Notes: generated from the letters alone by a model not told the origin. Shown: positions 1 to 22,268, counted from the stretch's first letter. The stretch is DNA of 57,741 nucleotides from a virus (IMGVR_UViG_3300036859_000226:1-57741), one strand, 5' to 3'. Program-made: numbers and translations.

Positions 1-172
1 CCCTGACGATGCGCATCGAGATGTTCTTGTACATCTCGCGCGCCTTGAAATCGACCCCATCGGGCAATTCCTTCGGCACGGTCACGAGGCCGAAGGCGTC
101 GCGGACAAAGCCGAGGTTCTGTGGCAGGTTGACGCCAGTCGCGCCGCTGATCACCGTCACGGGCGCATTGTT
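1..172. repeat. Terminal direct repeat / circular overlap, left copy
   Basis: Identical to 57570-57741 except one base (G128 vs A57697). It lies inside the capsid gene, so it is most likely an assembly circularisation overlap. Confidence 0.95.
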
Positions 173-1084
173 CGCCGGAGACACGTCGACATTTTGGTAG
201 GCCCCCGAGATTGTCAGCGCCGGATAGATCGGCAACGCGATCGATCCCGTCGTGTCGGAGATATTGGCCGTGACGACGAAGTTGGCCAGGACGCCGGTCG
301 AGGTGAAGTTCTGCGGGTTGACCGAGTGGACGCCATCGAAGGTCACGACATCGCCGGCCTTGAGGCTGGTTACGCCCGACCCCCACCCATCCGTATTGAT
401 CGTCGCTCCGGTCTGGCCGGCGAGGTTCACCAGCGGCGTCCCCGAATAGGTGCCGTTCTGGTGCGCACGGATGTTCTGGTCTTCGTAAATCTCGAAATTA
501 GCGATCGCCGCGAGGAATCCCTTCAGCGCCGGCTCGGCGACGCTGCGCACGAAGAGCGTCGTCAGCGCCGTCGCCAGCGCCCAGTTGGCGGCTGCATTGA
601 GGATCAGCACGCGGCCGTCCTGCGGCACGGCGCCCTCGTCCATGCGCTGCCCCACCGCCGCCAAGAACGAGAAGTTGTTCGGCGTCGTCCCCGGAGTGCC
701 GACGAGGTTCTGCACCGAGGAATAGAGGCTGAGCACGTCGAAATCGATCTTGTTGGCGAGCACCGCCGCGATCGGCTTCAGATAGCGCTCGGAGAACTCT
801 TCGATGATCAGCGTCAACTCGCGGCTCGAAAACAGAAAGCCGACGTGCTTCTGGTTGCTGATCGTAATCGAGGTCGACGGCTCTGTGATGTTCTGGATCA
901 CGAGGCCGGGACCGTCCGAGACCGTGAACTTGTTCGGCTTCCTGACGGTGATCGTGTCGCCGATCTTGACGAACTGGTTCTCAAACTGGCGATTGACCTT
1001 GGCCGCTGCGACCAGGTTGTTCTCCAGGATGACCAGCGTCTCCTTAGTGATCAACGACGGGGTAAGAAGGGTGTTGTCAGCCAT
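1..1084 (-). CDS. Major capsid protein, P22 coat (gp5)-like, 5' part; continues across the junction into 57472-57569 (393 aa in total)
   Basis: Hand translation MADNTLLTPSLITKETLVILENNLVAAAKVNRQFENQFVKIGDTITVRKPNKF...; follows portal and scaffold; 1084+98 nt = 394 codons. Absent from the ORF track because it has no stop in this part of the window. Confidence 0.9.
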   Translation of the reverse strand, partial: MADNTLLTPSLITKETLVILENNLVAAAKVNRQFENQFVKIGDTITVRKPNKFTVSDGPGLVIQNITEPSTSITISNQKHVGFLFSSRELTLIIEEFSERYLKPIAAVLANKIDFDVLSLYSSVQNLVGTPGTTPNNFSFLAAVGQRMDEGAVPQDGRVLILNAAANWALATALTTLFVRSVAEPALKGFLAAIANFEIYEDQNIRAHQNGTYSGTPLVNLAGQTGATINTDGWGSGVTSLKAGDVVTFDGVHSVNPQNFTSTGVLANFVVTANISDTTGSIALPIYPALTISGAYQNVDVSPANNAPVTVISGATGVNLPQNLGFVRDAFGLVTVPKELPDGVDFKAREMYKNISMRIVR

Positions 1085-1317: not shown

Positions 1318-2331
1318 TCAAGACGGTTTGACCTGTCCCCACATGCCGGCGCGGCGTTCGGCGCGGAGTTGCGGCAAGCGTTGGGCCGCATATTCCTCCG
1401 TTGACAACTCATCGAGCGCCCGCGGGGTTGCCCCGTTATTACCGCCAACCGGGGCCATCGGCCGCGGCAGTCGCGACGGCTGCGGGCGCTCCGGCAATGC
1501 GAGGCGAGCCGATATCTTCCCGATCTCGACCGCCTGCTGAAGCGGGTTGAGCGCGGCAATGCGCGTCGCTTCAGCAGGGTTCTTGCCGAGATGGTAGAGC
1601 ACCTGCGGCCCGTTGTCGGCGATTAGGAGCGGCCCGATCATCGTCTCCGTCACCGGCAACGTCTCCGCCTCGGCGATCAACTCGAAATCGGCGTAGGCCG
1701 GGTCTTCCAGCAGCTTCGCCCGCTTCTCGGCATAGCCGTTGCGCAGGCTTTCAAAGTGCTGTTGCTCAGCCTGCCGCTGCCGTGCGGTTTCCTCAGTGTC
1801 GCGTTGCTCCTTCTGCCGCCGATCCAGTTCTTCGGCCGTGCGCTGGGCCGCCGCGGTCGCGGCCTTGCTCGTCGCCCACGACACTAGCGCCTCGTCATAA
1901 GCGTCAGGATCGGCAAACTGATCCCGCTGCGGCTTTGGCACGACCGGCTCGGTCGGGGCGGCCGGTTGCTGTTGGGCGGCCGTCAACTTCTCGACCAACT
2001 GCGTCAGCTTATCGACGCGGGCATCCGCTGCGGCGCGAGCCTCTTCGGCCGCCCGACGTGCCGCCGTCAATTCGGATAGGCGCTGCCCGAACCGTGATTG
2101 CTGCGGCTGCGACGCTGCCGGCGCACCCGCCTCGCCAATCTCGCCCTCACCACCCTCGGTGGCGGTTGTTCCGGTTTCTGCTTCTTGCCCGTTGGCTTGC
2201 GGCGGGGCGGCATTGTCTGTTCCCGGATGAGGCGGCGGTGGGGCAGGCGGCGGGGGTGTATCCGATGTCGCCGACGTAGCGGGCCCCGGCGGTGGCGCCG
2301 AGAGAATGTCGATGTTCGTTCCGTCAGCCAT
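1318..2331 (-). CDS. Scaffolding protein
   Basis: Between portal and capsid; Pro/Ala/Glu-rich coiled coil; motif GPQVLYHLGKNPAEATRIAALNP typical of P22-like scaffolds. Confidence 0.85.
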   Translation of the reverse strand: MADGTNIDILSAPPPGPATSATSDTPPPPAPPPPHPGTDNAAPPQANGQEAETGTTATEGGEGEIGEAGAPAASQPQQSRFGQRLSELTAARRAAEEARAAADARVDKLTQLVEKLTAAQQQPAAPTEPVVPKPQRDQFADPDAYDEALVSWATSKAATAAAQRTAEELDRRQKEQRDTEETARQRQAEQQHFESLRNGYAEKRAKLLEDPAYADFELIAEAETLPVTETMIGPLLIADNGPQVLYHLGKNPAEATRIAALNPLQQAVEIGKISARLALPERPQPSRLPRPMAPVGGNNGATPRALDELSTEEYAAQRLPQLRAERRAGMWGQVKPS

Positions 2332-4573
2332 TTGCAGCCTTCCCGTTCGGCAGCGGCCGATCCATCGCCGCGCGCAATTCTTCTACCCCACGCGCCAACT
2401 CGGCAATCGGCTCGCCGACTTGCTTCATCATCGCCTCGTCCTGCTTCTGCTGTATCGCCGCCATCTTGGTCTCAACCTGCGCGACGATCGCCAGAAGCTT
2501 CGCCTCGAATGTCTTCTCGATCTGGTCGGCCTGCAATGCCCGGTCGCTCTGCCGCTCGGTCAGCGCCGCGAGCAATTGCTGTTTCTCGGCAGCGGCTGCC
2601 TGCAAAGCCTTCTGCATCTGCATAATCATCGCCTGCACCTGCGGCGGCACGTCCTTCATCGTGTCCGGGGTCAGCAACTCCGGCGGCAGCATCTTCGCCA
2701 GCCTGGTCGCCATCTCCTCGGCCCCGGGCCAATCCATGTTCTTTGCCACGAGATCAGCAACATTGGCCGCAATCTGCGGCGCCGCTGGCGCCAAAGCCCG
2801 AACAAAATCCAGCATGCTCTCGCCGGCCTCAATCCGCTTCGTCGCGTAGGACGGGCCGATCGTCACCGTCACCCCGTATTTCCCAAAATTCGGATTGAAT
2901 ATCTTGAGCGTCTTGCCGGTCTGCGGGTTGCGCTGCTCCTGGAAGGGGCGCGCCGCGTGCGGGTCGACTTGGACCTGCTCCTCGCTGTCGTCCTCCCGAA
3001 GGATCGTCAACATCCGCTTCTGCTCGTAAACCTTCGGAATCAGATCGACGAGGATCTCGCCGGTGTGCCGCAAAGACCGGGCAAAGTTGTCGATGTAGTG
3101 AAACGAGCCCAAGTCGCCGCGCTCCCGCAACTCCCTGAGCGCCCGGCCACTCTCATCATAGACACGCTCGCCCCGCGTCGCGTCAAAACGGATGCCCGTG
3201 ACCGCCATCATGTCCTGCGCGGCAGCCTCGACCTCGGCCAGCACGGCTTGCGGCGCCCCCTGGAACGGCTGGCGCATCGGCGCCGGCGCGGCCTTGCCAC
3301 CCAGGTCCGTCCCCTTGTAAAGCAGATACGGCAGTGTCTTGACGTTGGCCTGCTTCCACTCCTGCTCGTGCCCCTCGACCTGCCCTTCCTCCATGACCCA
3401 GGGCGCTTTCGGCTGAAGCGAAGTGATCTCGACCGACAGGGTACGATGGAAGTTGTACATCATCTGCGGCTGCTTGGCGTTGCGGATCAGGCCCGACAAC
3501 CTCACCTTGCCCTGAATATCCGTTTCGTTACCGATGCACTTGATGAGCGGAATCCATTTGCCGGGCCACTCGGCCTCTTCCAACACATCGACAGCGGTCA
3601 GCTTGTAGTGCATGACCCGCGGCACGTCCGCCCACCGCTCGTCAACAACCTCCATCCGCTTCGCCGCGTCGTCGAGTTCGTCCCAGAACCCCTCGTGTCC
3701 GTTTTCAAGCAGCACGAGGCGGCGCTTCTCCACCTCGACCTCGAAGTACTCCGCGATGCGTATCTCGTCCTTTGTGACCCACTCCTTGTAATCCTCGCCG
3801 AAGCCGCCTTCGGTCCACGCCATCGGGTCGGCATCGGGCCATTCGTCCTCGAACTCCTTGCGCGACACCAGCTCGGTGACGAACCCATAGCGCGCATCTG
3901 AGCCGTCCGGCTCCTGCGCTCGCGGGTCCAAGTACACGGTAAACGGGTTGCGCACGCGGCGCAGAACGATCGTTTGCCGCAGCGTCTCGGGCGACTCGTA
4001 CTCAAGCATCACCCGCCAATAACCCCAGCCAATCGACACGGCCGAGTCAAACCCCGTGTCGTAGGCAATATCGGCGACGCTGGCCCGCTCGATCGCTCGG
4101 ATGAGACCGCGGTACATCTTTGCGACTTCAGGGTCGCTCTTGTCGCCGACCGGGTTGATGTTGATCGCCGGCCGGTTCATGCGCTGGTCATTGACGACCT
4201 GGTTGACGAACGTCGGCAGCTTGTTGATCGTCAGGCACGGCCGCATGTCGAAGTTGCGATCGGCCACGACATCGGCTGGCCACTGCCCCTCGCCCGTCTT
4301 GAACTTGAGATCGTCGAGCCCTTGCTTGCGGTTGTCGCTCTCGGCGGAGACGCATCCCATAAACCGCTTGCGGGCGCGGGCAAGCAATTCCTGCCGCGCA
4401 TCCTTGTCCGCCTTCGCCGGCGTCGGATCGCCCGGTTGCATCGCGATCGGGTCTTTGCCGCCGGCACTCGACTCGCGCAAGTTTGGTGACGGAACCTTGT
4501 TCATCGCCGTATCGACCGGCGGCAACCGTACCCGGCCGCTCTGCCTTGGCTTGCGCGGGTCTTGCGCGGCCAT
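2324..4573 (-). CDS. Portal protein, P22 gp1-like
   Basis: 749 aa; RPCLTINKLPTFVNQVVNDQR, DPRAQEPDGSDARY, WPGKWIPLI, VTIGPSYATKR motifs; C-terminal coiled barrel. Confidence 0.93.
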   Translation of the reverse strand: MAAQDPRKPRQSGRVRLPPVDTAMNKVPSPNLRESSAGGKDPIAMQPGDPTPAKADKDARQELLARARKRFMGCVSAESDNRKQGLDDLKFKTGEGQWPADVVADRNFDMRPCLTINKLPTFVNQVVNDQRMNRPAININPVGDKSDPEVAKMYRGLIRAIERASVADIAYDTGFDSAVSIGWGYWRVMLEYESPETLRQTIVLRRVRNPFTVYLDPRAQEPDGSDARYGFVTELVSRKEFEDEWPDADPMAWTEGGFGEDYKEWVTKDEIRIAEYFEVEVEKRRLVLLENGHEGFWDELDDAAKRMEVVDERWADVPRVMHYKLTAVDVLEEAEWPGKWIPLIKCIGNETDIQGKVRLSGLIRNAKQPQMMYNFHRTLSVEITSLQPKAPWVMEEGQVEGHEQEWKQANVKTLPYLLYKGTDLGGKAAPAPMRQPFQGAPQAVLAEVEAAAQDMMAVTGIRFDATRGERVYDESGRALRELRERGDLGSFHYIDNFARSLRHTGEILVDLIPKVYEQKRMLTILREDDSEEQVQVDPHAARPFQEQRNPQTGKTLKIFNPNFGKYGVTVTIGPSYATKRIEAGESMLDFVRALAPAAPQIAANVADLVAKNMDWPGAEEMATRLAKMLPPELLTPDTMKDVPPQVQAMIMQMQKALQAAAAEKQQLLAALTERQSDRALQADQIEKTFEAKLLAIVAQVETKMAAIQQKQDEAMMKQVGEPIAELARGVEELRAAMDRPLPNGKAANG

Positions 4574-4574
4574 G

Positions 4575-4751
4575 TTATCGCGTCACCCCTTTACCCGGCG
4601 TCACGTTCTGCGGGACCCGCTGCGGATCTGGGGGCATCTCCAGCTTGCGCCCGACCGCCGGCCGGCTTGTCCCGCTTTCACGCGCATCCGGCGGCGTCGA
4701 CGGGCGCGTCTGTGTCAGCGGCGCCTCATGCGGCTTCGTGCTGTTCGCCAA
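4575..4751 (-). CDS. Small hypothetical protein (58 aa)
   Basis: TTG start after GAGGTG SD; MANSTKPHEAPLTQ...KGVTR; fills the gap before the portal gene. Confidence 0.5.
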   Translation of the reverse strand: MANSTKPHEAPLTQTRPSTPPDARESGTSRPAVGRKLEMPPDPQRVPQNVTPGKGVTR

Positions 4752-5004
4752 CTCTCACCTCCCCAGGCTCGTCGCCCGCTGTGATTGCACCATCGATCGC
4801 GTCCAACGCTGCGTCCCGACGCGCGCGCCAACCCTTGCCTGTCGCAGACGCCACGATCGCGTAATACTCCCTTCCCTGCCGATCCGCCATAGAGAGCCGC
4901 ACCGCCTCGCTGTCGAGATCGGCCGACCAAAAACGAAATTGCCGATAGCCGGTCACTCTCCCCTCAGCAGCTTGTGCCCTCGACCTGAAGTTGGCCAGAT
5001 GTAT
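4726..5004 (-). pseudogene. 3' part of a phage gene split by the 1.3 kb insertion (may restart at GTG 4956)
   Basis: Joins in frame to 6314-6343 to give MSDYASDRRL|IHLANFRSRAQAAEGRVTGYRQF... (102 aa). Confidence 0.75.
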
Positions 5005-5074
5005 CAGGCGGGCGGGGACGGGCGATGCAATTGTGGCGTGAGCGGACCGCGCCGCGCCGGGTGAAGGGGCGGCC

Positions 5075-5860
5075 ATGAAAATCGCCAGCTGGAACGTCAA
5101 TTCGGTCAAGGTGCGGCTGCCGCATCTGCTCGCGTTTCTGCAGGACACGCAACCCGACGTGTTGTGCCTGCAGGAGATCAAATGCATGGCCGACGACTTC
5201 CCTTCCCTCGAAATCGCCGCGCTCGGCTACCACGTCGAGGCGCTCGGCCAGCGCGCCTATAACGGCGTGGCTCTGGTGTCGCGCGAGCCGGCGCGCGATG
5301 TCGTCCGCGGCCTTCCCGAGGCGGGCGACGACGACCAGGCGCGCTATATCGAGGCCTCGTTCGGCAGCGCCGACGGCAACGAGGTGCGCGTCGCCTCGAT
5401 CTACCTGCCCAACGGCAACCCCGCCGGCACCGACAAGTTCACCTACAAACTCGCCTGGATGGAGCGGCTGGTCGGCCATGCGCAGGGCCTCTTGCGTCGC
5501 GAGATCCCGGTGGTTCTCGCCGGGGACTACAACGTCTGTCCGGCCGACGAGGATGTCTACGACCCGGTCGCCTGGCGCGACGATGCGCTGTGCCGGATTG
5601 AAGCGCGCTCGCGCTTTCGCGCGCTCCTGAACCTCGGCCTCTCGGACGCCTACCGCGTCTTTCACCGCGAGCCGCACCGCTACACCTTCTGGGATTACCA
5701 GGCCGGGCGCTGGAACCGCGACGAGGGGCTGCGCATCGACCATCTCCTGCTGTCGCCGCACGCGGTCGACCGGGCCGCCGCTTGCGACATCGACAAGAGC
5801 CCGCGCGGCAAGGAGCGGGCCTCCGACCACACCCCGATCTGGTGCGAGCTCGCCGTCTGA
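5075..5860 (+). CDS. xth: Exodeoxyribonuclease III / AP endonuclease
   Basis: MKIASWNVNS, LCLQEIK, YNGVA, IYLPNGN, GDYN, YTFWDY, GLRIDH, SDHTP motifs all intact. Confidence 0.96.
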   Translation: MKIASWNVNSVKVRLPHLLAFLQDTQPDVLCLQEIKCMADDFPSLEIAALGYHVEALGQRAYNGVALVSREPARDVVRGLPEAGDDDQARYIEASFGSADGNEVRVASIYLPNGNPAGTDKFTYKLAWMERLVGHAQGLLRREIPVVLAGDYNVCPADEDVYDPVAWRDDALCRIEARSRFRALLNLGLSDAYRVFHREPHRYTFWDYQAGRWNRDEGLRIDHLLLSPHAVDRAAACDIDKSPRGKERASDHTPIWCELAV

Positions 5861-5875
5861 ACGGTTCGCCGTTCA
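5858..5875. terminator. Perfect hairpin between convergent genes
   Basis: TGAACGG-TTCG-CCGTTCA; its arms contain the stop codons of both convergent genes; no U-tract. Confidence 0.55.
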
Positions 5876-6343
5876 ACCGCCGATGACGCGCTCGGCGACG
5901 GCGGCGAGGCTTTCCCCGCCGTTGTGGAACGGGGCCAACGGCACCAGGATCAGCGTGCGCGTGCCGGGCGCCAGCTCGGCAAAATCGCGGACCAGGGTGA
6001 ACTCGCCGTCAATCGCGGCGGCGAGCGGGATACCGAGGCGCTGCAACTCGCTCGGCATGTTGCCGGCGAGGGTGATCTCGGCGAGCGCGAATTCCTGCTC
6101 GCCCCAGGAGATGCGGCCGCGCGCGCCGGGCAGCCGCGACAATCCGGCAAACGCCGGCCCGGCCAACGCCGCGACCGAGAAGGTGGTATCGAACTGGAAA
6201 TGCCGGGCGATCGAGGCGGCAAATTCCGCCTCGGCGATGCGCAGCACGACCGGCATGCCGGGATTGCGGGCGCGCGCGCCGAGCCCGATTTCGAGGTTGA
6301 GGCTGTCGGCGAACAGGCGACGATCGGAGGCATAGTCAGACAT
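5873..6343 (-). pseudogene. Chimeric ORF: 10 phage residues fused to the C-terminal fragment of a TrkA/RCK-type potassium channel protein
   Basis: DSLNLEIGLGARARNPGMPVVLRI...FSVAALAGPAF resembles the end of an RCK (TrkA_N) domain; the N-terminal part of the domain is missing. Confidence 0.65.
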
Positions 6344-6575
6344 CCTTGGCCCTCCGGCGCCGCATGTACTCCCGTTGATATGACCGCTTGTCAAACCGCT
6401 CTGAAACCGCAGTGGGGAGCGTAGCCGGCTCTAGCACGATCACCGGCCTGGGCTTGGCGACCTGTGGCCGCTCGGCGCGCTCAGGGGCATCCTTGCCCCA
6501 TACGTGCGGCTCGTATCGCCAATGCCGTCCGCCGCAGAGTCGGCACAACTGCCGTGTTGTCGCTTCGCCCATCAC
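6336..6575 (-). CDS. Small hypothetical protein with CxxC-H-H zinc motif and basic tail
   Basis: CRLCGGRHWRYEPH...YQREYMRRRR. Confidence 0.7.
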   Translation of the reverse strand: MMGEATTRQLCRLCGGRHWRYEPHVWGKDAPERAERPQVAKPRPVIVLEPATLPTAVSERFDKRSYQREYMRRRRAKDV

Positions 6576-6579
6576 GGCA

Positions 6580-6619
6580 GTCTAACATCGCGCGCCCGAT
6601 TGTCTAACATTGTCTAACA
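6580..6619. repeat. Three copies of GTCTAACA
   Basis: At 6580, 6602 and 6612; intergenic, downstream of terL. Confidence 0.7.
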
Positions 6620-6633
6620 GGTGCGTGTCCACC

Positions 6634-7932
6634 TTACCGCCCGAGCCACGCCGCGCTCGGTTGCGCAGACCCGACCTCCATCAGAGGCCGACGCGACTGT
6701 CCAGGCCCCGCGCTGCGCCTCACCGCCGTCTTGTGCCCGACCGCGAGATAGCGGAACCCGTCTGCCGCGTTCGAGGCCCAGTCGTGCAGCGGGTGAGATT
6801 GAAACACCCGGCGCTTCTCGTCCCACGTCTTGCGGTAGCTTGTCAGCGCCAGCCGCCCGCGCTCCGTCTTCTCCCGATCGAACCAGCATCGGGCAAGGAA
6901 GTTGCGGGCCGCCTCGATTCCGTCCATCAAACCTATGTCCGGCACGATCTGGAATTTGATCCCGAGGTTTGCCGCCGTCTCCAGCCGGGACCGACCGCTG
7001 CCGAGTTCGCGCACCCGGATATCGTGCGGCGCATGGTGCGCCCCGTAAACGTATCCGCGATCCTGCAGAACCTTGGCGTAGTGCGCCAAACCCTCGCCGG
7101 ATTGCTCATAATAGTCAATGGCGTGCACCTCACGCCCAACCGTCTGTGTGAACCAGATCGCCGTTGCGTCGTCAACGCCGAGATCCCACCACGTCTCGAC
7201 CGCCGTCTCGGGCTGGTATGGGACACGACAGATACGGCCATCAGCATCGGCCGCCTGCATTTCGCGCCCAAAATAGGCACCAACTACGGAGGCGGCGAAG
7301 CTGCACTCGAACTCGGCGAGATACTGTTCCTCGCTCATCTCACGGCGCGCGTTGGCGAGCTCATCAGCCGGCAGCAATCCTGTCGCGCTTGCCTTGAGGC
7401 TCATCGTCAGCCACTCGGGGTCGCTCTGCGCTCGCTCCCACGCCTCGGCAAAATGGTTGAGCCCGCGGGGCGTGCCGATGAAGATCGCCCATCCCAGCCG
7501 ATCCGCAAGGCTTGCGCGCAGAACCTCCTGCCACGCCCGCGGGTCCATGTCCCCATACTCGTCAAGCACCAGGCCATCGAAGTAGAGACCGCGCAGCCGT
7601 TCGTAATTGTCTGCACCGTAGAGACGCACCCTGCCGCCGTTGGGCAGGTCAACCCGCAACTCGCTCTCGTTTGCCGCGACGCCGGGAATCGGCGCCGTAT
7701 AGGTCTTCAGGTATGACCAAGCCACATCCTTTGCTTGGCTGAAATAGGGCGCGACGTAGGCAAACCGCGGCGCCTTCTGCCGACAGCGCAGCGCGCCGTC
7801 GATCAGATCGTTGATGCAAGCCACAGTCTTGCCAGCGCGGCGGTGAGCCACCGTGATCGCCCAGCGTTGGCGTCGCGCGTGGAGTGGAGCGAATTGGCTG
7901 CGGGCGCGGTAGCCCGTCTCAACCCTTCGCAT
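6634..7932 (-). CDS. terL: Terminase large subunit
   Basis: Walker A HRRAGKT, Walker B LVLDEY, FIGTPRG, nuclease WDLGVDD, HDWASNAAD. Confidence 0.95.
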   Translation of the reverse strand: MRRVETGYRARSQFAPLHARRQRWAITVAHRRAGKTVACINDLIDGALRCRQKAPRFAYVAPYFSQAKDVAWSYLKTYTAPIPGVAANESELRVDLPNGGRVRLYGADNYERLRGLYFDGLVLDEYGDMDPRAWQEVLRASLADRLGWAIFIGTPRGLNHFAEAWERAQSDPEWLTMSLKASATGLLPADELANARREMSEEQYLAEFECSFAASVVGAYFGREMQAADADGRICRVPYQPETAVETWWDLGVDDATAIWFTQTVGREVHAIDYYEQSGEGLAHYAKVLQDRGYVYGAHHAPHDIRVRELGSGRSRLETAANLGIKFQIVPDIGLMDGIEAARNFLARCWFDREKTERGRLALTSYRKTWDEKRRVFQSHPLHDWASNAADGFRYLAVGHKTAVRRSAGPGQSRRPLMEVGSAQPSAAWLGR

Positions 7933-8368
7933 CTTCGTCTCGGGCAACGCCCGTCACGATCATCAGCGGGCCGCCATCTGCGCCCGTGTGCTCATGCCGA
8001 TCGCGCCACTTGGCCGGCTGCCGATTGCGTAGCCAGAGCGAGGCCGCCTGCGTGTCGGGAGGATAATGCTCGATGTAGGGCGCGTAGACCGGCGCGTCTG
8101 CACCGGCTGGCATGAAAATCTTGACTGCTTCGTGGCTATACCCCATCGCCCGATGCTTGAGCGCATGCCCGACTTCGGCATCGGCTACAAGCTTTCCGCG
8201 CGTCATGGCATCCAAGAATTCGGGATGAGCCTTACGCCAGTTATCGAGGGTTGTTTCCCGAACCCCGAAAAAATCGGCGATTTCTACATCGGTCGCCATG
8301 AGCAAACAGAGTTTGTAAACCTGCTCGACGAACTCGGGCCTGTAGTCGGTTGGCCTCCCTCGCGCCAT
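7919..8368 (-). CDS. terS: Terminase small subunit
   Basis: GRPTDY, HTH, PPDTQAASLWLRNRQPAKWRD, EHTGADGGPL; directly upstream of terL. Confidence 0.9.
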   Translation of the reverse strand: MARGRPTDYRPEFVEQVYKLCLLMATDVEIADFFGVRETTLDNWRKAHPEFLDAMTRGKLVADAEVGHALKHRAMGYSHEAVKIFMPAGADAPVYAPYIEHYPPDTQAASLWLRNRQPAKWRDRHEHTGADGGPLMIVTGVARDEDAKG

Positions 8369-8386
8369 AGGTCAGTCTGCGTGACC

Positions 8387-8560
8387 TTATTTCAGCGACC
8401 CGGCAACATCGCGCCCTTGCGTATGGGCATTCGCTGGCGCCGAGGAAGGGATCTTGATGCGGGAGGGCGTCGGACGGGAGCCGGAGCCGACGGAGGTATT
8501 CTGGGGCTTGGAGGACTGGGGCGGGGCTTTGAGGCCGCCGGTATCGGAGATGAGGGCCAT
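8387..8560 (-). CDS. Small hypothetical protein
   Basis: ATG after GGGAG SD; 57 aa, Ser/Pro-rich. Confidence 0.55.
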   Translation of the reverse strand: MALISDTGGLKAPPQSSKPQNTSVGSGSRPTPSRIKIPSSAPANAHTQGRDVAGSLK

Positions 8561-8599
8561 AATCTGGATCACTCCCAGGGGTGTAACAATGCGCTGATC

Positions 8600-8631
8600 T
8601 GCCTTTACTCCGCGTCGGGCCACTGTGTCAA
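8600..8631 (-). promoter_or_regulatory. Candidate sigma70-type promoter for the packaging operon
   Basis: TTGACA (8631-8626) followed by a weak -10 (GTAAAG/TAAAGG). Confidence 0.35.
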
Positions 8632-8633
8632 CA

Positions 8634-8837
8634 TCATCTAGCCAGTTTCGCGGCGAGCATCGCTCGCCAGATCGCGGCGAGGTATTGAGCCTCGCTGGTC
8701 TGCCGCGCCACGCCGGGGCGCACGATCGCCGCCTGCTCTGCCGCGCGGCTGCCGGCCTCGATCATCGCTGGCGTTACGGCCGACAGTTCCTCTACCAGCA
8801 CGGTAAGGGCGTGTTGGTTGGTTGCTGGGTCGCTCAT
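8634..8837 (-). CDS. Hypothetical protein
   Basis: TPAMIEAG...AIWRAML, a common phage small-protein motif; ATGA coupling. Confidence 0.7.
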   Translation of the reverse strand: MSDPATNQHALTVLVEELSAVTPAMIEAGSRAAEQAAIVRPGVARQTSEAQYLAAIWRAMLAAKLAR

Positions 8838-9718
8838 ACGCCGCAACCCCCCTCGCAGTCGGCGAAGGCGTCAAAGCCAGTGTCGTCGGGATCAAGATAG
8901 AGGCCGGGCAGTGTGGGTTCGCGTCTGATGCGATCAGCGATTTGTGCATAACTCTCGCGGTCAGGTGACCGGAACTGGCCGTTCGTATAGCCGCGAGCCT
9001 TCGCCAGCCGCTCTTGTTCGCTCCACCACAGCATTTTGTCGGGGTGGTCAATCGTCATGCGCACGAGCGAGCCTTGCCGTTTCAGGAAACAACCGTCGCA
9101 GTTTCCTTCCCAATCACCCGCCAAGCCAAGATCGAACGGTTGCGCGGCCCAGAACGGTTTGACGTGCCCTAGCTTTGTCATTCTCGCCTTGGCGAGCGGG
9201 CACGATCCGAAATGGCCGTCGCGGCGCGAGGCGTTACGAAGGGCTATCCGGTGTACCCGGTGAAGCTCGTCATACCGAAGGCCGAGATACCGTCGGTGCC
9301 ATCCCCAACCAAGCTCATCGCGCACCCAACGTTGCACGGTGCGCATTTTCAATTCCTCGGTGCAGAAGCGCATCTTTGGTCCAGGTAGCATGTAGCCGCG
9401 CGCTTCGAGGAGTTGGACGAATGGTTCCCCGTTACGGCTGGCGCTGTTGTGACTCACTGCCTCTGCCCATTGCCTGCCAGTCTCCGGATCGCGCCGATAC
9501 TCAAGCCATTGGATATGGACGCTCCAATGCACGGACATATCCCGCACGAAATCCAGCGTTGCCGGCATTTCGCGTCCGGTGTTGCAGAAGAACGCAAACA
9601 CATCTGGAGGCAACCTGCCGTCGTGGCGCTCAAGGATGTGATGCAGCATCATCCCCGACGTTCGGCCGCCGCTGACATTGATCGCTGACGGGCCTTGGAG
9701 GCGGAACGGGTCAGGCAT
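8834..9718 (-). CDS. PAPS-reductase-like PP-loop protein
   Basis: SGGRTSG, FCNTGRE, RFCTEELK, GNCDGCFLK. Confidence 0.85.
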   Translation of the reverse strand: MPDPFRLQGPSAINVSGGRTSGMMLHHILERHDGRLPPDVFAFFCNTGREMPATLDFVRDMSVHWSVHIQWLEYRRDPETGRQWAEAVSHNSASRNGEPFVQLLEARGYMLPGPKMRFCTEELKMRTVQRWVRDELGWGWHRRYLGLRYDELHRVHRIALRNASRRDGHFGSCPLAKARMTKLGHVKPFWAAQPFDLGLAGDWEGNCDGCFLKRQGSLVRMTIDHPDKMLWWSEQERLAKARGYTNGQFRSPDRESYAQIADRIRREPTLPGLYLDPDDTGFDAFADCEGGCGV

Positions 9719-9721
9719 CGC

Positions 9722-10222
9722 TCATTTCCCCTGCCTCTTGCGCCATTCCCAGGGCCAATCGAACTCACCCGACCATACACCCAATCGCTCGGCCTTCGCC
9801 GCCTCTTGCCGATCCTCGTAGGCTCCGGTCGAGTAGCGCGGCCATACCGCCGCCAACCCGTGGCTGACGAGCATCCCGGCGATGTCGCCCTCAGACGTGG
9901 CACAGGACGCGACGGAGCGCCCATACACATCAATTGAGCGCACGGAGCATGTGGCGGGGCCGCGGGCGAGGATACGCGCCAGCGCCTTCTCGGCCTCTTC
10001 TCCGCAAAACCACGGGATGCGCTCGATGCAAAGCTGGTCGCGCTCGGGCGCGTCGATTTCCGCGAGTCGCACCCGGACGCCGGCGACGATCAGGGTGTCG
10101 CCATCAATGGCTTGCGCGTAGCCGCTGATCGTGACCTGCGCCTGCGGCTCGGGGATGGCGAGCGCGGCGAGGGAGCCGGCGAGGACGAGGCAGGCCAGCG
10201 CGGAGTTTAGGTGGTCGGTCAT
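9722..10222 (-). CDS. Thermonuclease (SNase family) with N-terminal hydrophobic signal
   Basis: IDGDTL, RVRLAEIDAPE, DVYGRSVA, AKAERLGVW. Confidence 0.9.
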   Translation of the reverse strand: MTDHLNSALACLVLAGSLAALAIPEPQAQVTISGYAQAIDGDTLIVAGVRVRLAEIDAPERDQLCIERIPWFCGEEAEKALARILARGPATCSVRSIDVYGRSVASCATSEGDIAGMLVSHGLAAVWPRYSTGAYEDRQEAAKAERLGVWSGEFDWPWEWRKRQGK

Positions 10223-10468
10223 GGCTCGTCCGTAGCCGGGAGTGGCGGCAAATCGATTGGTTCCCAATATTGCCAATTTCGGAGGCGCCAAAGAGTACCG
10301 TCGCTAGCAAGAACGATGGTGTTTGCGGGGTTCACGGCGACATTATCAAAGCAGACAACTTGCGCGATTTTTCGATCGTCCATCACATCACTCCCATCCC
10401 GTCGATCTCATAGGACGGTGCGGCCAGCGCGAGCGCCAGCCCGGCGACGAATAGGAGCTTCCTGAGCA

Positions 10469-11070
10469 TCACTCCCTCCCGCTGCTTCCAGGATCAATCA
10501 ACTGCAAGATTTCCTCGTATTTGCCGAGGATTTCCTTAAGCCGCTGCAAGCCTGCGCGATCCACGTCCGCCGAAATTTCCAGACGGTTGCCCCGGAGCAG
10601 CACACTTAAATCTCCGTCTTGCCCCGCGTAAGCGCTGGAGGCGGAGCGCGGGCCTCCTTGTGGCGTCAGCTTGGGAGCATCAACCACGGTCAGCTCGCTT
10701 GTTGGGATGCCGGTCATACTGCCAAACACCCGCGCATGGCGTCCGTCCTCGGAAAGCCAGTTGACCCGGCGCGGCTTTTCAAACTGGTCCTGCCCATTGC
10801 TCGTCCATTGCACATCATCGCCAATCCTCACTTCCCTTATGGGCGGCGGCGCGGGAGCTGGCGACCCCTCATGTGGTTCCCGCCCCTTGACCGCGACGGG
10901 CGAATCGTCGCTTGGTGCGGCCAACTTGGCAAAAGCTAAATTGGCCTTGTAGAGGGTCAGAAGTAACGCGGCGGCGTTCTCCGCATACCCGAACTCGACT
11001 TTGAGGGTGCTGCGGGCAATCTGGTCAGCGGGTGGCTTGTCGCGCCAGGTCGTCCAAAGGCTGGCAAAAG
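10469..11070 (-). pseudogene. C-terminal remnant of a hypothetical gene lacking its 5' end
   Basis: Protein-like frame FASLWTTWRDKPPADQIARSTL... begins inside the preceding ORF with no proper start. Confidence 0.5.
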
Positions 11071-11343
11071 AGTATCGCGCCCTCGACACATCCACGCGAA
11101 CAACGTTTTTGCAATTAGCCCAAGCCGCACCATTAACGGCACATGCCGGCGTAGAAATTGCCGCTGTTCTGCCTCGGGGAGCGTATGGACGTACTCAAGA
11201 TAGTCGTGGATAGCGGCCGCCAATTTGCTCAACACCTCGTGGTCAGAGGTGCCTTGCACCGCTATGTCGAAATCCAGACAGATCGCCTCCCACGCATTCC
11301 CAGACCCCTCAGCGTAGCAGAGTAGAACCGTCGGACCTTTCAT
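10957..11343 (-). CDS. HicB-like (RNase H fold) antitoxin-like protein, 3' end probably scrambled
   Basis: WEAICLDFDIAVQGTSDHEVLSKLAAAIHDYL; GGAG SD. Confidence 0.6.
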   Translation of the reverse strand: MKGPTVLLCYAEGSGNAWEAICLDFDIAVQGTSDHEVLSKLAAAIHDYLEYVHTLPEAEQRQFLRRHVPLMVRLGLIAKTLFAWMCRGRDTLLPAFGRPGATSHPLTRLPAAPSKSSSGMRRTPPRYF

Positions 11344-11546
11344 GCTCCAACCTCGCTGGTCAACGATTCGCCAGATTGTCAAGCGGAAAATTCGCGACTA
11401 ACCAGCTAACACCATTAGGATTAGCGGTTCCTTGACAGGCGTCAAAATGGTTTGATGTTTTGTGAGGCCGCCAGCTCAGTCCCGTTGGGAATCAGAGCGC
11501 CACCACATTTAGCAATGTGTGAACACCAAACCTGGTTTTCAATGGC

Positions 11547-12281
11547 TTAACTGGCTGATTCTGCGCGCCCGATATAGCGCAGCGTGACATTCGCAATCCG
11601 CGCGTCAGCCATGCGTGATGTGCATGCGCAGTCTGTGCTAGGCGAATCGCCTGGTCCCATCTGCGCCCGAATACCGTCGTAATGGCCCTCAAACTCCTTG
11701 GTCGGCTCTCCGCACACGTATTGGCCGTAGATCGCGTCGCGCCCGTGAACCTCGGCGTAACCGTACTCACGCGACCGTGATTGCGCGTAGAAGTGGGCGT
11801 CGTCAACCGCAGCCAGCAGCAACCGGCGCTTCTTCACCCGCTCATCCAGCTGGGCCTTGATCTCGGCGAGCGCCGGCCAGAAGACCTGATTCTCGCCGAG
11901 CCACCGGCATGCCTCGACCACGGCATCCTCGGGATAGGTCGCCAGCAGTTCCCGGTAAATCTGCAGCGTGAGGGCGGTGTCCTGGTCGGGTTCGGTACGC
12001 GCCTTTGTCGACAGGCGCAGCCTCGTCAACTCGGCCATGACCACGCGATCTGCGCAGGGATCGAGGTTGCGCAACAGGATCTGCCGGCATTCCGCCAGCA
12101 CCCCGGGCGGGCAACCAGGCGCGATCGTATAGCCGATGAGTTCCCAATCCCGGTCAGCCTGTTCCACCAGCGGGTGGGAGCCAAGACATGATTTCAACGA
12201 TGCTTGCACGCCCCTTTCGATCTCGTGACAGGTCGGCCGTTGGACGTTGGTTGAAAGCTCGCGTCCGGTCTTCTCGCTCAT
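11547..12281 (-). CDS. Putative replication accessory / helicase-loader-like protein
   Basis: Follows the initiator; YRELLATYPEDAVVEACR..FWPALAEI; start uncertain. Confidence 0.6.
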   Translation of the reverse strand: MSEKTGRELSTNVQRPTCHEIERGVQASLKSCLGSHPLVEQADRDWELIGYTIAPGCPPGVLAECRQILLRNLDPCADRVVMAELTRLRLSTKARTEPDQDTALTLQIYRELLATYPEDAVVEACRWLGENQVFWPALAEIKAQLDERVKKRRLLLAAVDDAHFYAQSRSREYGYAEVHGRDAIYGQYVCGEPTKEFEGHYDGIRAQMGPGDSPSTDCACTSRMADARIANVTLRYIGRAESAS

Positions 12282-13227
12282 CGTACCTTCCTTCGAGGAT
12301 CTTGATCGCGTTCTCGGGATTGATGACCCACCCCAAGTCGGTTTTGAAGCCATTTATCTCACCGCGGAGATAGGGTGAGTCGCGCACCTTGCCGCAGAAC
12401 TCCCGCCACTCGTCGAGACTGCCGTGAAAATTCCCCCGCAGGCGGGCAAGCAGCTTGCCCTTCCGAGAAGCATTCAGCGTCCGCGACAGCGCGATCGTTC
12501 CCACCCCCGCGCACACCTCGTTCCACGTGGAACGCATCGCTTCGGCGACATCCTCCTTCGACGATGGTCTCCTGGGTTCCTCAGATGTGAGGGTCAGGGG
12601 CTCGACGTTCGGGTAGTGCTTCCCGTTCACCCCGTTCAGTGAATGCCCGTGCCCCTCGCCCTCTTCCCCCGCAGCGGGGAGAGGGCCGCCGGCGGCGTTC
12701 GTGGCGGGCTGCCCATCGTTCGTCGGCGTCAAGCCGACAAGAGATTCTCCGTCAGGAGAATCTCCTTCTTCCTTGGGTATAGGGTATAGGGTATAGGGGG
12801 CTATAGGGGGGGCTATAGGGGGGGCTATAGGGGTCGCTGAAATTTCGGTTGGCGATACAGAATTTTCTGTTTGTTTACTGCGCCTTGCGCGGAGGCCTTC
12901 AAGACCGTTTTTTCGGTTAATTTCTCGCCGTTTCTCGTCGCGAACCATTCTCCGATTGTAAATGACGCCGGTTCGCGTCCGGCTGAACACCCCTCTTTGA
13001 GCGAGTTCACCGATGAGCGGCTCTACCTCTGATATGGGTTTTCCGGCCAGCTTGGCGATGTCGTCATTCGAGCAAGCGGAACCCTGGACCGCAAGGTAGC
13101 CTCCCGATCTTGCGGCGACCGAAAGCATCCGCATCCACAATCCCTGAGCCGCGAGGGAACAGAGCGCAAGCGCGCGATCATTGTCCCAATCATTCCAGAA
13201 CCAGCGCGTCGACGGGTTGATACTCAC
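12154..13227 (-). CDS. Phage replication initiator (lambda O-like architecture)
   Basis: N-terminal wHTH (DWDNDRALALCSLAAQGLWMRML...IYNRRMVRD), internal iterons, C-terminal LGWVINPENAIKILEGRY. Confidence 0.85.
   Translation of the reverse strand: MSINPSTRWFWNDWDNDRALALCSLAAQGLWMRMLSVAARSGGYLAVQGSACSNDDIAKLAGKPISEVEPLIGELAQRGVFSRTRTGVIYNRRMVRDEKRREINRKNGLEGLRARRSKQTENSVSPTEISATPIAPPIAPPIAPYTLYPIPKEEGDSPDGESLVGLTPTNDGQPATNAAGGPLPAAGEEGEGHGHSLNGVNGKHYPNVEPLTLTSEEPRRPSSKEDVAEAMRSTWNEVCAGVGTIALSRTLNASRKGKLLARLRGNFHGSLDEWREFCGKVRDSPYLRGEINGFKTDLGWVINPENAIKILEGRYDEREDRTRAFNQRPTADLSRDRKGRASIVEIMSWLPPAGGTG
12519..12534. promoter_or_regulatory. parS-like palindrome CGTTCCACGTGGAACG
   Basis: Perfect 16-bp palindrome with the chromosomal parS core GTTCCACGTGGAAC. 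Confidence 0.7.
12722..12880. repeat. Putative replication origin inside the initiator gene
   Basis: Hairpins GTCGGC-GTCAA-GCCGAC and GAGATTCTCC-GTCA-GGAGAATCTC; GGGTATA x3; GGGGGCTATA x3 (12-bp period); adjacent AT-rich tract. Confidence 0.8.
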
Positions 13228-13261
13228 GAAAGCAACCCCTCGCTGATACCTTCTCGGGGCA

Positions 13262-13675
13262 TTACGCTGCCACGAGTTCGGCGGGAATGCTCCAGGCAAT
13301 AGCGGCAGCCTCGATGATGAGGCCCGCGTCCATCAGCAGTCTGCCGGCGTGGGCGGCATCCTTCTCGGTTACAGTCCCGGTGATCTCGCCGTCTAAACCA
13401 ATGCGTGCTTCGCCATAGCGAAACGAGGCCCGATAGAGTGGGAGATTTGACGTGTACATGGCAATCGCCCCCCGAATAAACTTCTGATTTAACTCGGGAA
13501 GCGCCTCGACAAGCTGGTCATATATGCCGATCGCGAGCGGCGACCGGATGTCGCCAGGCTGTGCAAAGCATTCAGGGAAAAGATCATAGATCGGTTGGTA
13601 GGCCAGAAGTTTGCGCGCCCGTATCCGTCGCAGATTGCTGCGATGACGGCGCTGACTACGGGTCAACTTCGGCAC
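13262..13675 (-). CDS. ProQ/FinO-family RNA chaperone
   Basis: FPECF...PLAIGIYDQL...AIAMYTS..Y....RIGLDGEITGTVTEKDAAHA matches the FinO domain pattern. Confidence 0.85.
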   Translation of the reverse strand: MPKLTRSQRRHRSNLRRIRARKLLAYQPIYDLFPECFAQPGDIRSPLAIGIYDQLVEALPELNQKFIRGAIAMYTSNLPLYRASFRYGEARIGLDGEITGTVTEKDAAHAGRLLMDAGLIIEAAAIAWSIPAELVAA

Positions 13676-13706
13676 GCGATCCCCCTACGATCCCCTGGAG
13701 AAGAGT

Positions 13707-13793
13707 GAGCGCGAGCCCAACCCAAGTCTGAGCTGGGGATCGTTTAGCTGAACGGGTGCGAACTCGGGGGATCAACCCGAGCGGCCCGCGCTC
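13707..13793 (-). ncRNA. c4-like antisense RNA
   Basis: Closing stem GAGCGCGGGCC/GGCTCGCGCTC; two internal hairpins expose GATCCCCC and ACGATCCCC, complementary to sites at 13678-13695. Confidence 0.7.
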
Positions 13794-13803
13794 GCCGACT
13801 ACG

Positions 13804-13998
13804 CTACGGGAGGCCGGGGCGCGCCGTCAAGACCCCCTTCTGCGGCTTCGGTCGGCGCCCTGTTTTGCGCGGGATCACGCCAATGGCGTTGAGCCGGTGC
13901 CGGGATTCGATGTCTTCCTTCGCAGCTTTGATCGCCGCTTCGCGCCGGGCGCGGTCTTCGGCTGAAGAATATCTCTCTAATTGCGTTTTTTTAGACAC
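13804..13998 (-). CDS. Hypothetical protein
   Basis: In operon, 64 aa. Confidence 0.55.
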   Translation of the reverse strand: MSKKTQLERYSSAEDRARREAAIKAAKEDIESRHRLNAIGVIPRKTGRRPKPQKGVLTARPGLP

Positions 13999-14010
13999 AC
14001 CAGCACCGCC

Positions 14011-14196
14011 TCAGCGCCGGGCCGGCCAAGGGAGTGGTTTGTCGCTCGGCTCCGGGGTTGCGCGATATCGGAGTCCTTGAGCCCCAGCGTCTGCCTGTCG
14101 CGCGATCAACTCGCACAGCGCCCGAAACTCGGGCCCGATGTAACACCACGGCGGCGGCTTCGCGGCCCAGTCGCAATCGTGTTTGATCGGTTTCAA
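14011..14196 (-). CDS. Hypothetical protein
   Basis: TTGA coupling with the methyltransferase stop. Confidence 0.5.
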   Translation of the reverse strand: MKPIKHDCDWAAKPPPWCYIGPEFRALCELIARQADAGAQGLRYRATPEPSDKPLPWPARR

Positions 14197-15613
14197 TCCG
14201 CCACCTCCGCGAATAGGCCGGCGTCCTTTATCAGGCGCTTGCGGGCCATTTCCGTAAAAGTTGGATTAAGTTCGACGCCGACCGCGTTTCGGCCGAGACG
14301 ATCCGCGACAACCAGGGAAGTCCCCGAGCCCGCGAAACAATCCAACACCGTTGCCGGCACCGGATCAGCAGCCGGGCAGGAGCAGGAGGACGACCAGCCG
14401 ATCTCCGTCGTCTCGACGCGATCTCGCCAATGACCGACCCCGCTTGCGCCGATCCGCTGGCCGCCATTGTTGACCGGCCAGGAACCCGTCAGAGGCTCGC
14501 CGTCGCGCGTGCGTCGTTTATCAACCACCCGCACCCATGGCGCGCCACAGGCCGGGCACACCCCCTTCTCGCTGGTGCCTGCCAGGATCGCGCGCCGCGG
14601 GATCTCGCTGGGGAAAACCGCAAAGTGAGCGTCAGGATACGGCTCGGGCCCGAGCAGCCACCAGTTTCGCATGTTCCGTTTCTGCATGACGGCGCGGAAC
14701 GCCGGTTGATCGGTATCCGCCCATTTGCCGCCGAAGCGGCCCTTCGGGACCGACGGCCGGGAGGCCCGCCATTGTTGGTCGTTGCCGCGCGGGCCGTTGG
14801 CGTCAGCGTAGGATAGCCTCGCTTCACGCTTGAAGCCGTTTCCGCTGTCGTGATCTGAGACGGATTCCTCCTGTACGGCGACAGCATCCCAGAAATACCG
14901 CTCGCTCTTCGTCAGCAGGAAAACCTTCTCGGTCGCGCTGGTCGGCCGATCCCTGACGCTTTCGGGCATCGGGGCCCTTTTGGCCCAGGTGATCTCGGAG
15001 CGGATCCACCACCCATCCGCCTGTAAGGCGAGGGCGATCCGCGCCGGCATCATCATCAGGTCTTTGGGCTTTAGATTGAAGCCGCGGATCGTCCCGGTGT
15101 GGCTCGCACGCTTCGGGTGGTTTTTGATCTGCGATGAATGCCAGGACGGCTCGTCACTTTCGGTGACCCGACGGCCCTGTGCGCCCCACGAGCCAGCGTA
15201 GCTATCGCCCAGGTTCAGGAAAAGGGTGCCATCCGATCGAAGGACGCGCCTTACTTCCCGAAAAACCTCGACGATGTGCTCGATGTAGAGCGCGGGGCCG
15301 GGCTCAAGGCCGAGCTCGCCGCGCCACGCGCCGCAGCGGCCGCAAAAAGCTCCAGGCGCAACGCCGCGTTGATGGCTCCCGGTGTTCGTCGCCTGCTTCG
15401 GGGTCGGCTCCTCTTCGGGGAAATGGCGGCTGTCGACCACCGTGGCGTCCTGCCAGGAATGGCCGCAGGCCGGATTACCGCCCAGATTTGCGGCTCTGTG
15501 TCATATGCCCGCAGACCCAGATAGGGAGGCGAGGTAACGACGCAGTGCACGCTCTCGCTCTCCATTTCCCGGAGCACCGTCAGCGCGTCGCCGCAGATGA
15601 TCCGCACGCTCAT
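14193..15613 (-). pseudogene. N6-adenine/N4-cytosine DNA methyltransferase (beta class), frameshifted at about 15481-15483
   Basis: VTSPPY in one frame; LNLGDSY, HFAVFP and LDCFAGSGTS in the next; adding one G to the TGGG run gives a single 473-aa ORF. Confidence 0.85.
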
Positions 15614-15990
15614 AGGCACCCGATCCCGAGCGACCATTCGGCCGCCAGCGTGTCGATTGGGATAATCGGCATGTTGCGCACGTCGATGCCGCCGCGGTAG
15701 AGCCAGATCCCCTCTCTCGGGATGTCGGGGTCGGGCCCGAGCAGCGCGCGCGGTACGCGGGCGTCGTCTATCACGATGACGCGGATCGCCTCGATGAACT
15801 CGCGCGGCGACGCCGCGTCGTCAGCCGCCTGCCGAAACCAGTCCAGCAGCACATAGACGGCGTGCTCCGCTGCTTCGGCCAGATAGACGCCGCGCTCGAT
15901 GGCCGGCCACCGCGCCGCGCCGGCGGCACCCAACCCGTGCGCCAGGATCGACGGAATGCGGTCGATCGTCGTGGCGTGGAAGTAGGTCAT
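15610..15990 (-). CDS. ADP-ribosyltransferase-fold (DarT/Tpt1-like) protein, tentative
   Basis: YFHATTIDRIPSILAHGL...GVYLA. Confidence 0.5.
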   Translation of the reverse strand: MTYFHATTIDRIPSILAHGLGAAGAARWPAIERGVYLAEAAEHAVYVLLDWFRQAADDAASPREFIEAIRVIVIDDARVPRALLGPDPDIPREGIWLYRGGIDVRNMPIIPIDTLAAEWSLGIGCL

Positions 15991-18352: not shown

Positions 18353-18545
18353 CGCCCCAGTCCTCCGGCGTCTCGATCGTGCCGCGCACAATGTCGGCGG
18401 CGGAGCGCTTGGTCGGAATACGGTCCAACGCGGCCTCAATCGCTCGACGACGCTCCTGCGCCCTGCGGTCTCTGCGGCGCGCTGACACCATGATTACGAG
18501 GCCGAGCGCCGTGCCAAGCAGGAAGGAGGCAAGATCGAACGTCAT
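18342..18545 (-). CDS. Small membrane protein
   Basis: N-terminal transmembrane helix; GGGCGAG SD. Confidence 0.65.
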   Translation of the reverse strand: MTFDLASFLLGTALGLVIMVSARRRDRRAQERRRAIEAALDRIPTKRSAADIVRGTIETPEDWGDAR

Positions 18546-18556
18546 CGTCTCGCCCC

Positions 18557-19120
18557 CTAATTGAGATACCCGAGCCGCTTGCGCTCGGCGCGCTTCGCTT
18601 GAACGAGTTCCTGGATTTGAGGGATCTGCAATTCGGGCATCAGGGTTTCGATCGCCGGCATCTGTTCGAGGAACAGACGCGCTGCATCGGACTCCAACCC
18701 GTGGGCTATGATCTCGGTCTGGGCGTTGAGGCTGAGTTGTTCGATTTGAGAAAGCGCCTCTTTCTCGATCGCTTCAACCTTCGACTTCGCCGCTCGACGC
18801 AGTTCTGTCCGTCGCTCGGCGACGGCGTTGTGTCCCCGCCCGTGCCAATACATTTCGATCCCTGGCGCGAACTCTGCGGGAATGCCGAGTTCGCTACAGC
18901 GCGCCGCGATGGCCTGCTTGGCCTCTTCAATCGCCTTGTCCGCCGCTGCCTTTACACGCGCCCAAACCTCATCCTCATCCCAATGGTGGATCTTGGCGGA
19001 TTGCGCGTCGAACTCGGCCAGAAGCGCCGCTGACCGCTCCTGCGCTTTCGCCTTCATCACCTTCTCGCGCTTTCGGACGAGTTGCAAAAGCTGGTCGCGC
19101 TCAGCCTTGGTCATGCTCAT
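18557..19120 (-). CDS. Hypothetical coiled-coil protein
   Basis: 187 aa, in operon. Confidence 0.75.
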   Translation of the reverse strand: MSMTKAERDQLLQLVRKREKVMKAKAQERSAALLAEFDAQSAKIHHWDEDEVWARVKAAADKAIEEAKQAIAARCSELGIPAEFAPGIEMYWHGRGHNAVAERRTELRRAAKSKVEAIEKEALSQIEQLSLNAQTEIIAHGLESDAARLFLEQMPAIETLMPELQIPQIQELVQAKRAERKRLGYLN

Positions 19121-22261: not shown

Positions 22262-22268
22262 TGCCGGG

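Follow-up and report, generated by a model that had tools for sequence, protein, structure and literature searches.

The window analysed here is a complete 57,741-bp virus record of IMG/VR (IMGVR_UViG_3300036859_000226:1-57741), which carries a P22-like head and packaging module on the minus strand. Between two genes of this module, those for the terminase large subunit (terL) and the portal, lies a gene for an exodeoxyribonuclease III / AP endonuclease (xth) on the plus strand, which converges on a minus-strand open reading frame (ORF) of 156 codons. A first-pass annotation, made from the sequence alone, had described these as two convergent cellular-type genes with a shared hairpin and had proposed that a piece of host chromosome was inserted cleanly and recently into a phage gene. 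The description of the gene pair is accurate (Table 1), with a 7-bp stem over the two stop codons. Rather than to an insertion, our results point to a replacement, in which 1,329 bp of host chromosome was captured illegitimately at the cost of most of orfX, our name for a small phage gene. Alignments to a bacterial locus and to related phages establish the donor lineage, both junctions and the gene that was hit, and show that xth and the neighbouring phage gene orf76 are intact.

Table 1. Features of the terL-portal interval and of the adjoining head and packaging module of the window
Feature	Position	Strand	Remarks
Major head protein	2-1084	-	P22-like module
Scaffold	1318-2331	-	P22-like module
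P22-type portal	2324..4573	-	PF16510 at 4e-172
orf76	4726..4956	-	intact small phage gene of unknown function; GTG start, 76 aa
Last 23 nt of phage DNA upstream of orf76	4957..4979	-	outside the donor alignment
Captured host block, 1,329 bp	4980..6308	.	ungapped donor alignment
Donor leader upstream of xth, 95 nt	4980..5074	+	1/95 nt differs from genome G225; contains the left CAGGCG
xth, exodeoxyribonuclease III / AP endonuclease	5075..5860	+	intact, 261 aa; antisense to the phage late genes
Hairpin, 7 bp, over both convergent stop codons	5858..5875	.	stem TGAACGG/CCGTTCA, TTCG loop
K+ channel/RCK gene, 3' fragment	5873..6307	-	truncated; last 144 codons and stop
Chimeric ORF, 156 aa	5873..6343	-	open frame; 12 orfX codons and 144 channel codons
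orfX 5' remnant (MSDYASDRRLFA)	6309..6343	-	9/12 residues match the start of the 75-aa orfX of locus L124
Right CAGGCG	6314..6319	+	phage DNA, 6 nt beyond the 6308/6309 junction
orf79, small phage gene upstream of orfX	6336..6575	-	31% identical to a 90-aa ORF at the same position in L124
terL	6634..7947	-	phrog_2 and phrog_7579; 79% identical to L124 terL
Terminase small subunit (terS)	7919-8368	-

The donor locus and the captured genes

A DNA search of 237 genomes of one bacterial family, that of a metagenome-assembled genome (MAG) titled Stellaceae, uncovered the near-identical bacterial locus whose existence the first-pass annotation had anticipated. In genome G225 (contig C411; locus L205, 2829-1501), 1290 of 1329 nucleotides are identical to window positions 4980-6308 (97%), with no gaps; the match ends abruptly on both sides, and beyond it the flanks of the bacterial locus show no relation to the window. 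The window, G225 and counterparts from the same family agree in gene order, convergent orientation, leader and hairpin position. In G225, however, an xth gene of 261 aa converges on a full-length K+ channel/RCK gene, whose frame is open for at least 644 codons, between chromosomal flanks, whereas the block in the window is cut at 4980 and 6308 inside phage genes. Of the 237 genomes, 35 or more have xth and the 3' end of the channel gene in a single contiguous match (a tally that includes five genomes flagged as unpublished, none of them among the 35), and all of these two-gene matches stop at query positions 1336-1355, equivalent to window positions 6292-6311. In a scan of species representatives, the closest xth genes among the matches listed came from ten MAGs with the titles Stellaceae or uncultured Alphaproteobacteria (78-86% protein identity), and a convergent homologue of the second ORF follows xth in six of the ten best loci. 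In a quick tree the window xth nests in an 11-row clade with MAGs of these titles (SH-aLRT 99), on a short end branch of 0.055. The convergent arrangement of xth and the channel gene is chromosomal, and the donor is a close relative of G225 but not G225 itself. The block is also set apart by composition: its GC content over 5035-6308, 69.3%, exceeds that of every other segment of 1,274 nt in the record (mean, 63.7%; standard deviation, 2.6), and GC content at third codon positions is 0.89 in both captured genes versus 0.66-0.83 in neighbouring phage genes.

The xth gene was rightly called intact. Its product passes both NCBIfam equivalog cut-offs, scoring 234.8 bits against TIGR00195 (cut-off, 182.55; residues 1-259 over profile positions 1-254 of 254) and 233.2 bits over its full length against TIGR00633 (cut-off, 99.05). 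It also matches Pfam family PF03372 (7.9e-30; score, 104.6; cut-off, 24.5) and aligns end to end with the exodeoxyribonuclease III 2jc4 (E value, 4e-59). The motifs WNVNS, LQE and RIDH are identical in the two proteins, while GDYNV and SDHTP correspond to gdfni and sdhap, so that GD.N and SDH are kept. These motifs contain the catalytic residues of the family (metal binding and general base); Protein Data Bank entry 6fk5 bears the title 'NExo D146N'. Relative to G225, xth differs at 9 of 783 nt and by four amino acids, all four outside the conserved motifs. An erpA gene precedes xth in 7 of 14 loci examined, and a remnant of erpA was considered at 5015-5064; this candidate was rejected, as the same leader occurs in G225 without an adjoining ORF of erpA size. 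An exact 12-nt repeat, GAGCCGCACCGC, is common to orf76 (4894-4905) and the captured xth (5669-5680); it lies away from the junctions and is probably a chance occurrence in GC-rich DNA.

The second captured gene is a fragment. Full-length bacterial homologues of 630-838 aa have a K+ channel pore (Ion_trans_2, with TTGYGD) and two TrkA_N/RCK domains, and the 630-aa homologue at locus L045 has Ion_trans_2 and two TrkA_N domains. The fragment begins at about residue 486 of the latter, inside the second TrkA_N domain (412-519), and the pore (320-393) is absent; with neither a pore nor a complete RCK fold, it is a piece of an RCK/TrkA-domain K+ channel and not a member of that class. The chimeric ORF as a whole had no Pfam match even at E values up to 1 and no match to a PHROG or NCBIfam family. 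Among the best 150 of 371 hits in a library of 1.8 billion proteins, none matches before residue 9 and most begin at residues 11-13. The fragment differs from G225 at 24 of 432 nt and by eight amino acids, and the ratio of nonsynonymous to synonymous divergence (pN/pS) against G225 is 0.26 in the fragment and in xth alike, which suggests that most of the differences in both genes arose under selection in bacteria. The ratio of the fragment's divergence to that of xth (2.1-2.5) reaches the top of the range seen among bacterial genomes (1.6-2.3) and in part exceeds it. On these small counts, we read most of the differences as probably separating G225 from the true donor, with little or no decay in the phage. 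The channel fragment is most likely a passenger.

The hairpin between the two genes is not stronger than in shuffled sequences (z, -0.61) and has no T run. It differs from that of G225 at 5 of 18 nt, in contrast to the 95-99% identity of the genes on either side; both versions seem, by eye, able to pair, and the changes would fit compensatory change in a bidirectional terminator-like stem.

Phage sequence on either side of the block

The closest relative of the phage, found in a metagenome scan with terL, is locus L124 (terL, 79% identity; portal, 73%). Its gene order is terL, a homologue of orf79 (90 aa), orfX (75 aa), a homologue of orf76 and the portal gene, and it has no insert. In L124, orfX starts MTDYDADRRLFA; the chimeric ORF of the window starts MSDYASDRRLFA, at the same place after the orf79 homologue, and the DNA aligns from window 6363-6309 to L124 5802-5857 with 41 of 56 nt identical. 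As orfX similarity spans 6363-6309, phage homology ends at 6309 and donor identity at 6308. The first 12 codons of orfX are left in the window and codons 13 onward are missing; an orfX also precedes orf76 in two further loci (L135 and L128). The earlier proposal that a phage start is fused in frame to a truncated TrkA/RCK-type gene, behind a GGAGG, is borne out by the 12 orfX and 144 channel codons, and both this GGAGG and the ATG at 6343 overlap the stop codon of orf79 (ATGTCTGA). Another origin considered for the residues MSDY was a duplication of the start of orf76, whose homologues begin MSGY or MSSY; it was discarded because orfX matches 9 of 12 residues and lies in the right position.

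On the other side of the block, the 23 nt of phage DNA that remain upstream of orf76 are probably the 3' end of orfX together with the ribosome site of orf76; one frame in this stretch ends in a TGA that overlaps the GTG at 4956, as in L124. The remainder of orfX was searched for in 4957-5074 and was not found there, since 4980-5074 is donor DNA. The loss of orfX from codon 13 on means that part of this gene was replaced, and that the event was not the simple insertion that had been proposed: roughly 170 bp of phage DNA would have been lost and 1,329 bp gained if the parental orfX had the length of that in L124.

The gene that follows, orf76, has six database homologues of 60-73 aa that align from the position of GTG 4956, four of them with a methionine exactly there; the homologues P0002 and P0003 are 71-72% identical to orf76, and the longest possible ORF of the orf76 homologue is 68-79 aa in five related loci (L004, L184, L124, L041 and L006). 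Since its homologues are of 60-79 aa and start at the GTG position, orf76 is an independent gene and not the tail of a gene of 102 aa. Homologues occur in 13 of 122 related loci (3 viral and 10 metagenome loci) and in one locus of a bacterial genome.

Neither xth nor the channel fragment was found in any of the 42 viral loci related by portal or the 80 metagenome loci related by terL, of which 28 (15 viral and 13 metagenome) contain both genes and hence span the interval. In relatives the terL-portal interval is as short as about 24 nt (L011) and as long as about 3.6 kb (L127), with differing small genes, and is therefore a variable region. A blastn search of 4400-6700 against phage records gave no match, and a scan of viral contigs with a 92-aa extended ORF gave no relatives.

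Origin and possible consequences of the capture

These results are best accounted for by an illegitimate capture of 1,329 bp of host chromosome into a P22-like phage at the expense of most of orfX, seen at an early stage; we put the probability of this explanation at about 85%. Non-homologous recombination between phage and chromosome, as a pair of non-homologous joints or as a template switch, would have brought DNA of a G225-like host into the variable interval between terL and portal. The host DNA would have taken the place of about 170 bp of orfX, of which the first 12 codons and about 23 nt at the 3' end would remain, and would have carried in a 95-nt leader, an intact xth oriented against the late operon, the hairpin and the last 144 codons of the channel gene. 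These codons would be in frame with the orfX start by chance. The resulting 156-aa chimera is probably made from the late operon, because it lies within that operon and its start is coupled to orf79. We infer that the event is recent, and to this extent the first proposal, that contiguous host chromosome was captured recently at a site between terL and portal, is supported.

The clean 1.3-kb insertion first envisaged, with a 6-bp duplication of CAGGCG in a 102-aa phage gene, was suggested by hexamers that are indeed present at 5005-5010 and 6314-6319. Removal of 5005-6313 does give 102 open codons from the minus-strand ATG at 6343, but there is no uninterrupted gene of this kind; related loci carry orfX and orf76 separately, and the upstream start belongs to the former. 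The left hexamer lies in the donor-aligned block, so that the two copies are not a duplication, and the next 25 nt of the supposed phage ORF are donor DNA as well; what had been read as its continuation ('IHLANFRS...') is largely the antisense of the donor xth leader. The right copy is phage DNA, and phage homology continues for 5-6 nt past it, through codons F and A. Hence the limits of the block shift from 5011-6313 to 4980-6308, with the phage/donor joint five nt inside the right junction first assigned. The hexamer itself is at chance frequency: CAGGCG occurs 74 times in the window versus 72.5 expected from shuffles, with a third plus-strand copy at 5336, and at least one 6-mer is common to 58% of equally spaced pairs of zones elsewhere in the window. 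A clean insertion is thus very improbable, and the alignment to the donor already refutes it. Also improbable is an assembly or library chimera, in which a host block was joined artificially to a phage contig and no such phage exists. The contig does derive from a metagenome, no second copy of the arrangement was found, and a bacterium of the donor type is likely to be present in the same kind of sample. However, a chimera would require a pair of joints, both leading back into colinear phage sequence at the very place of one small gene in relatives; it would probably have no shared k-mer to bridge, because the window and the donor locus are without similarity outside the block; and the 3% difference from G225 would further disfavour it.

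Transfer in the reverse direction, from phage to bacterium, has nothing beyond the shared sequence in its favour. Bacteria have the whole channel gene and the phage a cut one, the gene pair recurs in 35 or more of the 237 genomes of the bacterial family, the window xth lies inside a bacterial clade, and the composition of the block is bacterial and not that of the phage; we regard this explanation as effectively refuted. It is also possible, though doubtful, that xth is already a selected accessory gene, with an AP-endonuclease or 3'-repair activity that helps phage DNA to survive, for example under base-excision attack; its capture would then be adaptive, and xth no neutral passenger. The gene is intact and has its own leader and ribosome site, its pN/pS against G225 is the 0.26 given above, a few phages have an annotated exodeoxyribonuclease III, and it matches phrog_19169 at 1e-25. 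However, selection in the phage is indistinguishable from earlier selection in bacteria because only nine nucleotides differ; the block still carries a truncated gene, no relative has the block, and xth runs against the late operon, without a promoter-like site that the scan could find. We regard xth as at best an incipient accessory gene. More speculative still is a capture that is non-neutral in one of two ways. Xth might repair abasic sites or blocked 3' ends produced by base-excision-type host defences, of which restriction glycosylases are an example (PMC10273834, PMC5388411). Alternatively, the chimera, as an RCK C-terminal lobe produced from the late operon, might co-assemble with the host channel and disturb its gating ring during infection. 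We think both unlikely; if either were true, the block would be a newborn phage counter-measure, still no more than about 3% diverged from the gene it came from.

Several points weigh against the capture as we describe it, or against a function of xth in the phage. Neither an empty allele nor a near-identical phage was found: an exact 24-nt pattern from the junction sides was matched by no viral and no metagenome contig, in a search from which records very near the window may be left out. The parental phage is known only via a relative of about 73-79% protein identity, so that deletion size and possible microhomology at the joints are estimated values. Nor is G225 itself the exact donor: its channel fragment is 5.6% different in nucleotides (pS, 0.12) versus 1.1% for xth. 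A consensus scan found neither a sigma-70-like promoter upstream of xth nor, across 4400-6800, a site resembling a terminator, although alphaproteobacterial promoters may escape such a scan. The late transcript has 916 nt between the stop codon of the chimera and orf76, antisense to xth and without a recognised gene. If late transcription is not terminator resistant, this stretch may have a polar effect on the portal and head genes. The genome may represent a dead-end variant.

Phages are well known to capture genes and to acquire morons, which are host-derived accessory genes between conserved genes of lambdoid and P22-like phages; in the classic form they are intergenic and equipped with a promoter and a terminator of their own. 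Like a moron, the captured block is extra DNA of deviant composition, and it lies in a variable interval and separates genes that adjoin each other in relatives. Unlike the classic form, it replaced part of a gene, it carries a truncated second gene, and it is still 97% identical to its donor; the consensus scan, which may miss alphaproteobacterial promoters, found no promoter-like or terminator-like site for it. Specialised-transducing phages such as lambda gal and bio arise by aberrant excision and have substitutions that adjoin the attachment site. The window resembles these in that host DNA replaces phage DNA by illegitimate recombination, but here the substitution lies in the packaging and head module, and a non-exhaustive scan of the ORFs showed neither an integrase nor an att site. 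A discrete foreign block inside a gene also recalls an insertion sequence or transposon. As had been stated in the first annotation, however, no transposase match was seen in the ORFs scanned and no inverted repeats at 4980/6308 among the 25 of 67 inverted pairs listed; nor is there a real target-site duplication.

The window xth shares its enzyme family with phrog_19169 and with phage genes annotated as exodeoxyribonuclease III, as in Ralstonia phage RP13 (LC554890.1), Vibrio phage Va2 (MW073017.1) and Acinetobacter phage MD-2021a, but the phage genes are all less than 30% identical to it. Such genes are rare, with exonuclease III-like matches in 13 of 50,697 phage records. By these comparisons, the window xth would be a separate and recent acquisition from the phage's own host lineage. 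No account of this kind of capture was found among the papers listed in a literature search. Gene capture by phages is itself familiar, and only the freshness and the completeness of the picture are unusual: both joints are mapped to the nucleotide against a donor of 97% identity, a passenger gene is still attached, and there is no sign of a mobile element. The locus also carries a caution for annotation, as a short flanking repeat and an open frame in GC-rich DNA can mimic a tidy insertion, a model that comparison with relatives overturned.

Host lineage and other features of the record

The block identifies the host lineage as that of a close relative of G225, in the family of the MAG titled Stellaceae; the expectation that the insert would point to the host is thus supported, and an uncultivated phage is tied to a bacterial lineage. 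A second genome of the family backs this link. Contig C299 of genome G150 (loci L204, L213 and L219) is a related phage contig with terS, terL (79% amino acid identity), a homologue of orf76 and a portal gene (51%). Its terL-portal interval holds DNA that is 70% identical to window positions 54951-55356, which in the window lie far from that interval. Window segments 6309-24000 and 38000-57741 gave only weak matches to G225 (66-67%), and a portal gene was not found in the five genomes that carry the best xth loci. A GapR-like DNA-binding domain is encoded in the ORF at 22269-22874 (PF10073, 7e-10), which we take to fit an alphaproteobacterial host.

The remainder of the record is phage-like, with genes for a DnaB-type helicase, RecT, RusA, methyltransferases, an ejection protein and a head closure protein, and no bacterial flank was seen in it. 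The gene for the major head protein extends beyond the first position of the record, whose cut thus falls within a gene. This would be expected of an assembly that is circular or circularly permuted but given in linear form. Between terL and orf79, the motif GTCTAACA occurs three times (6580-6587, 6602-6609 and 6612-6619), the second and third copies within a tandem TTGTCTAACA. This cluster overlaps the sole promoter-like site found in 4400-6800 (minus strand, 6606..6579) and may be a regulatory site inside the late gene block. Next to terS, within 8834-10291, is a PAPS-reductase-like gene (phrog_424), followed by a 189-aa ORF that matches phrog_8809 and phrog_18798, both PHROGs of unknown function. 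Two HNH_3 endonuclease genes, at 24613-25140 (with an AP2-like domain) and 27125-27673, may encode homing endonucleases, and a single tRNA gene, tRNA-Met (CAT), lies at 33385-33460. An O-acetyltransferase or O-antigen acetylase-like gene at 37226-38248 (phrog_3333) may be a surface-modifying accessory gene.

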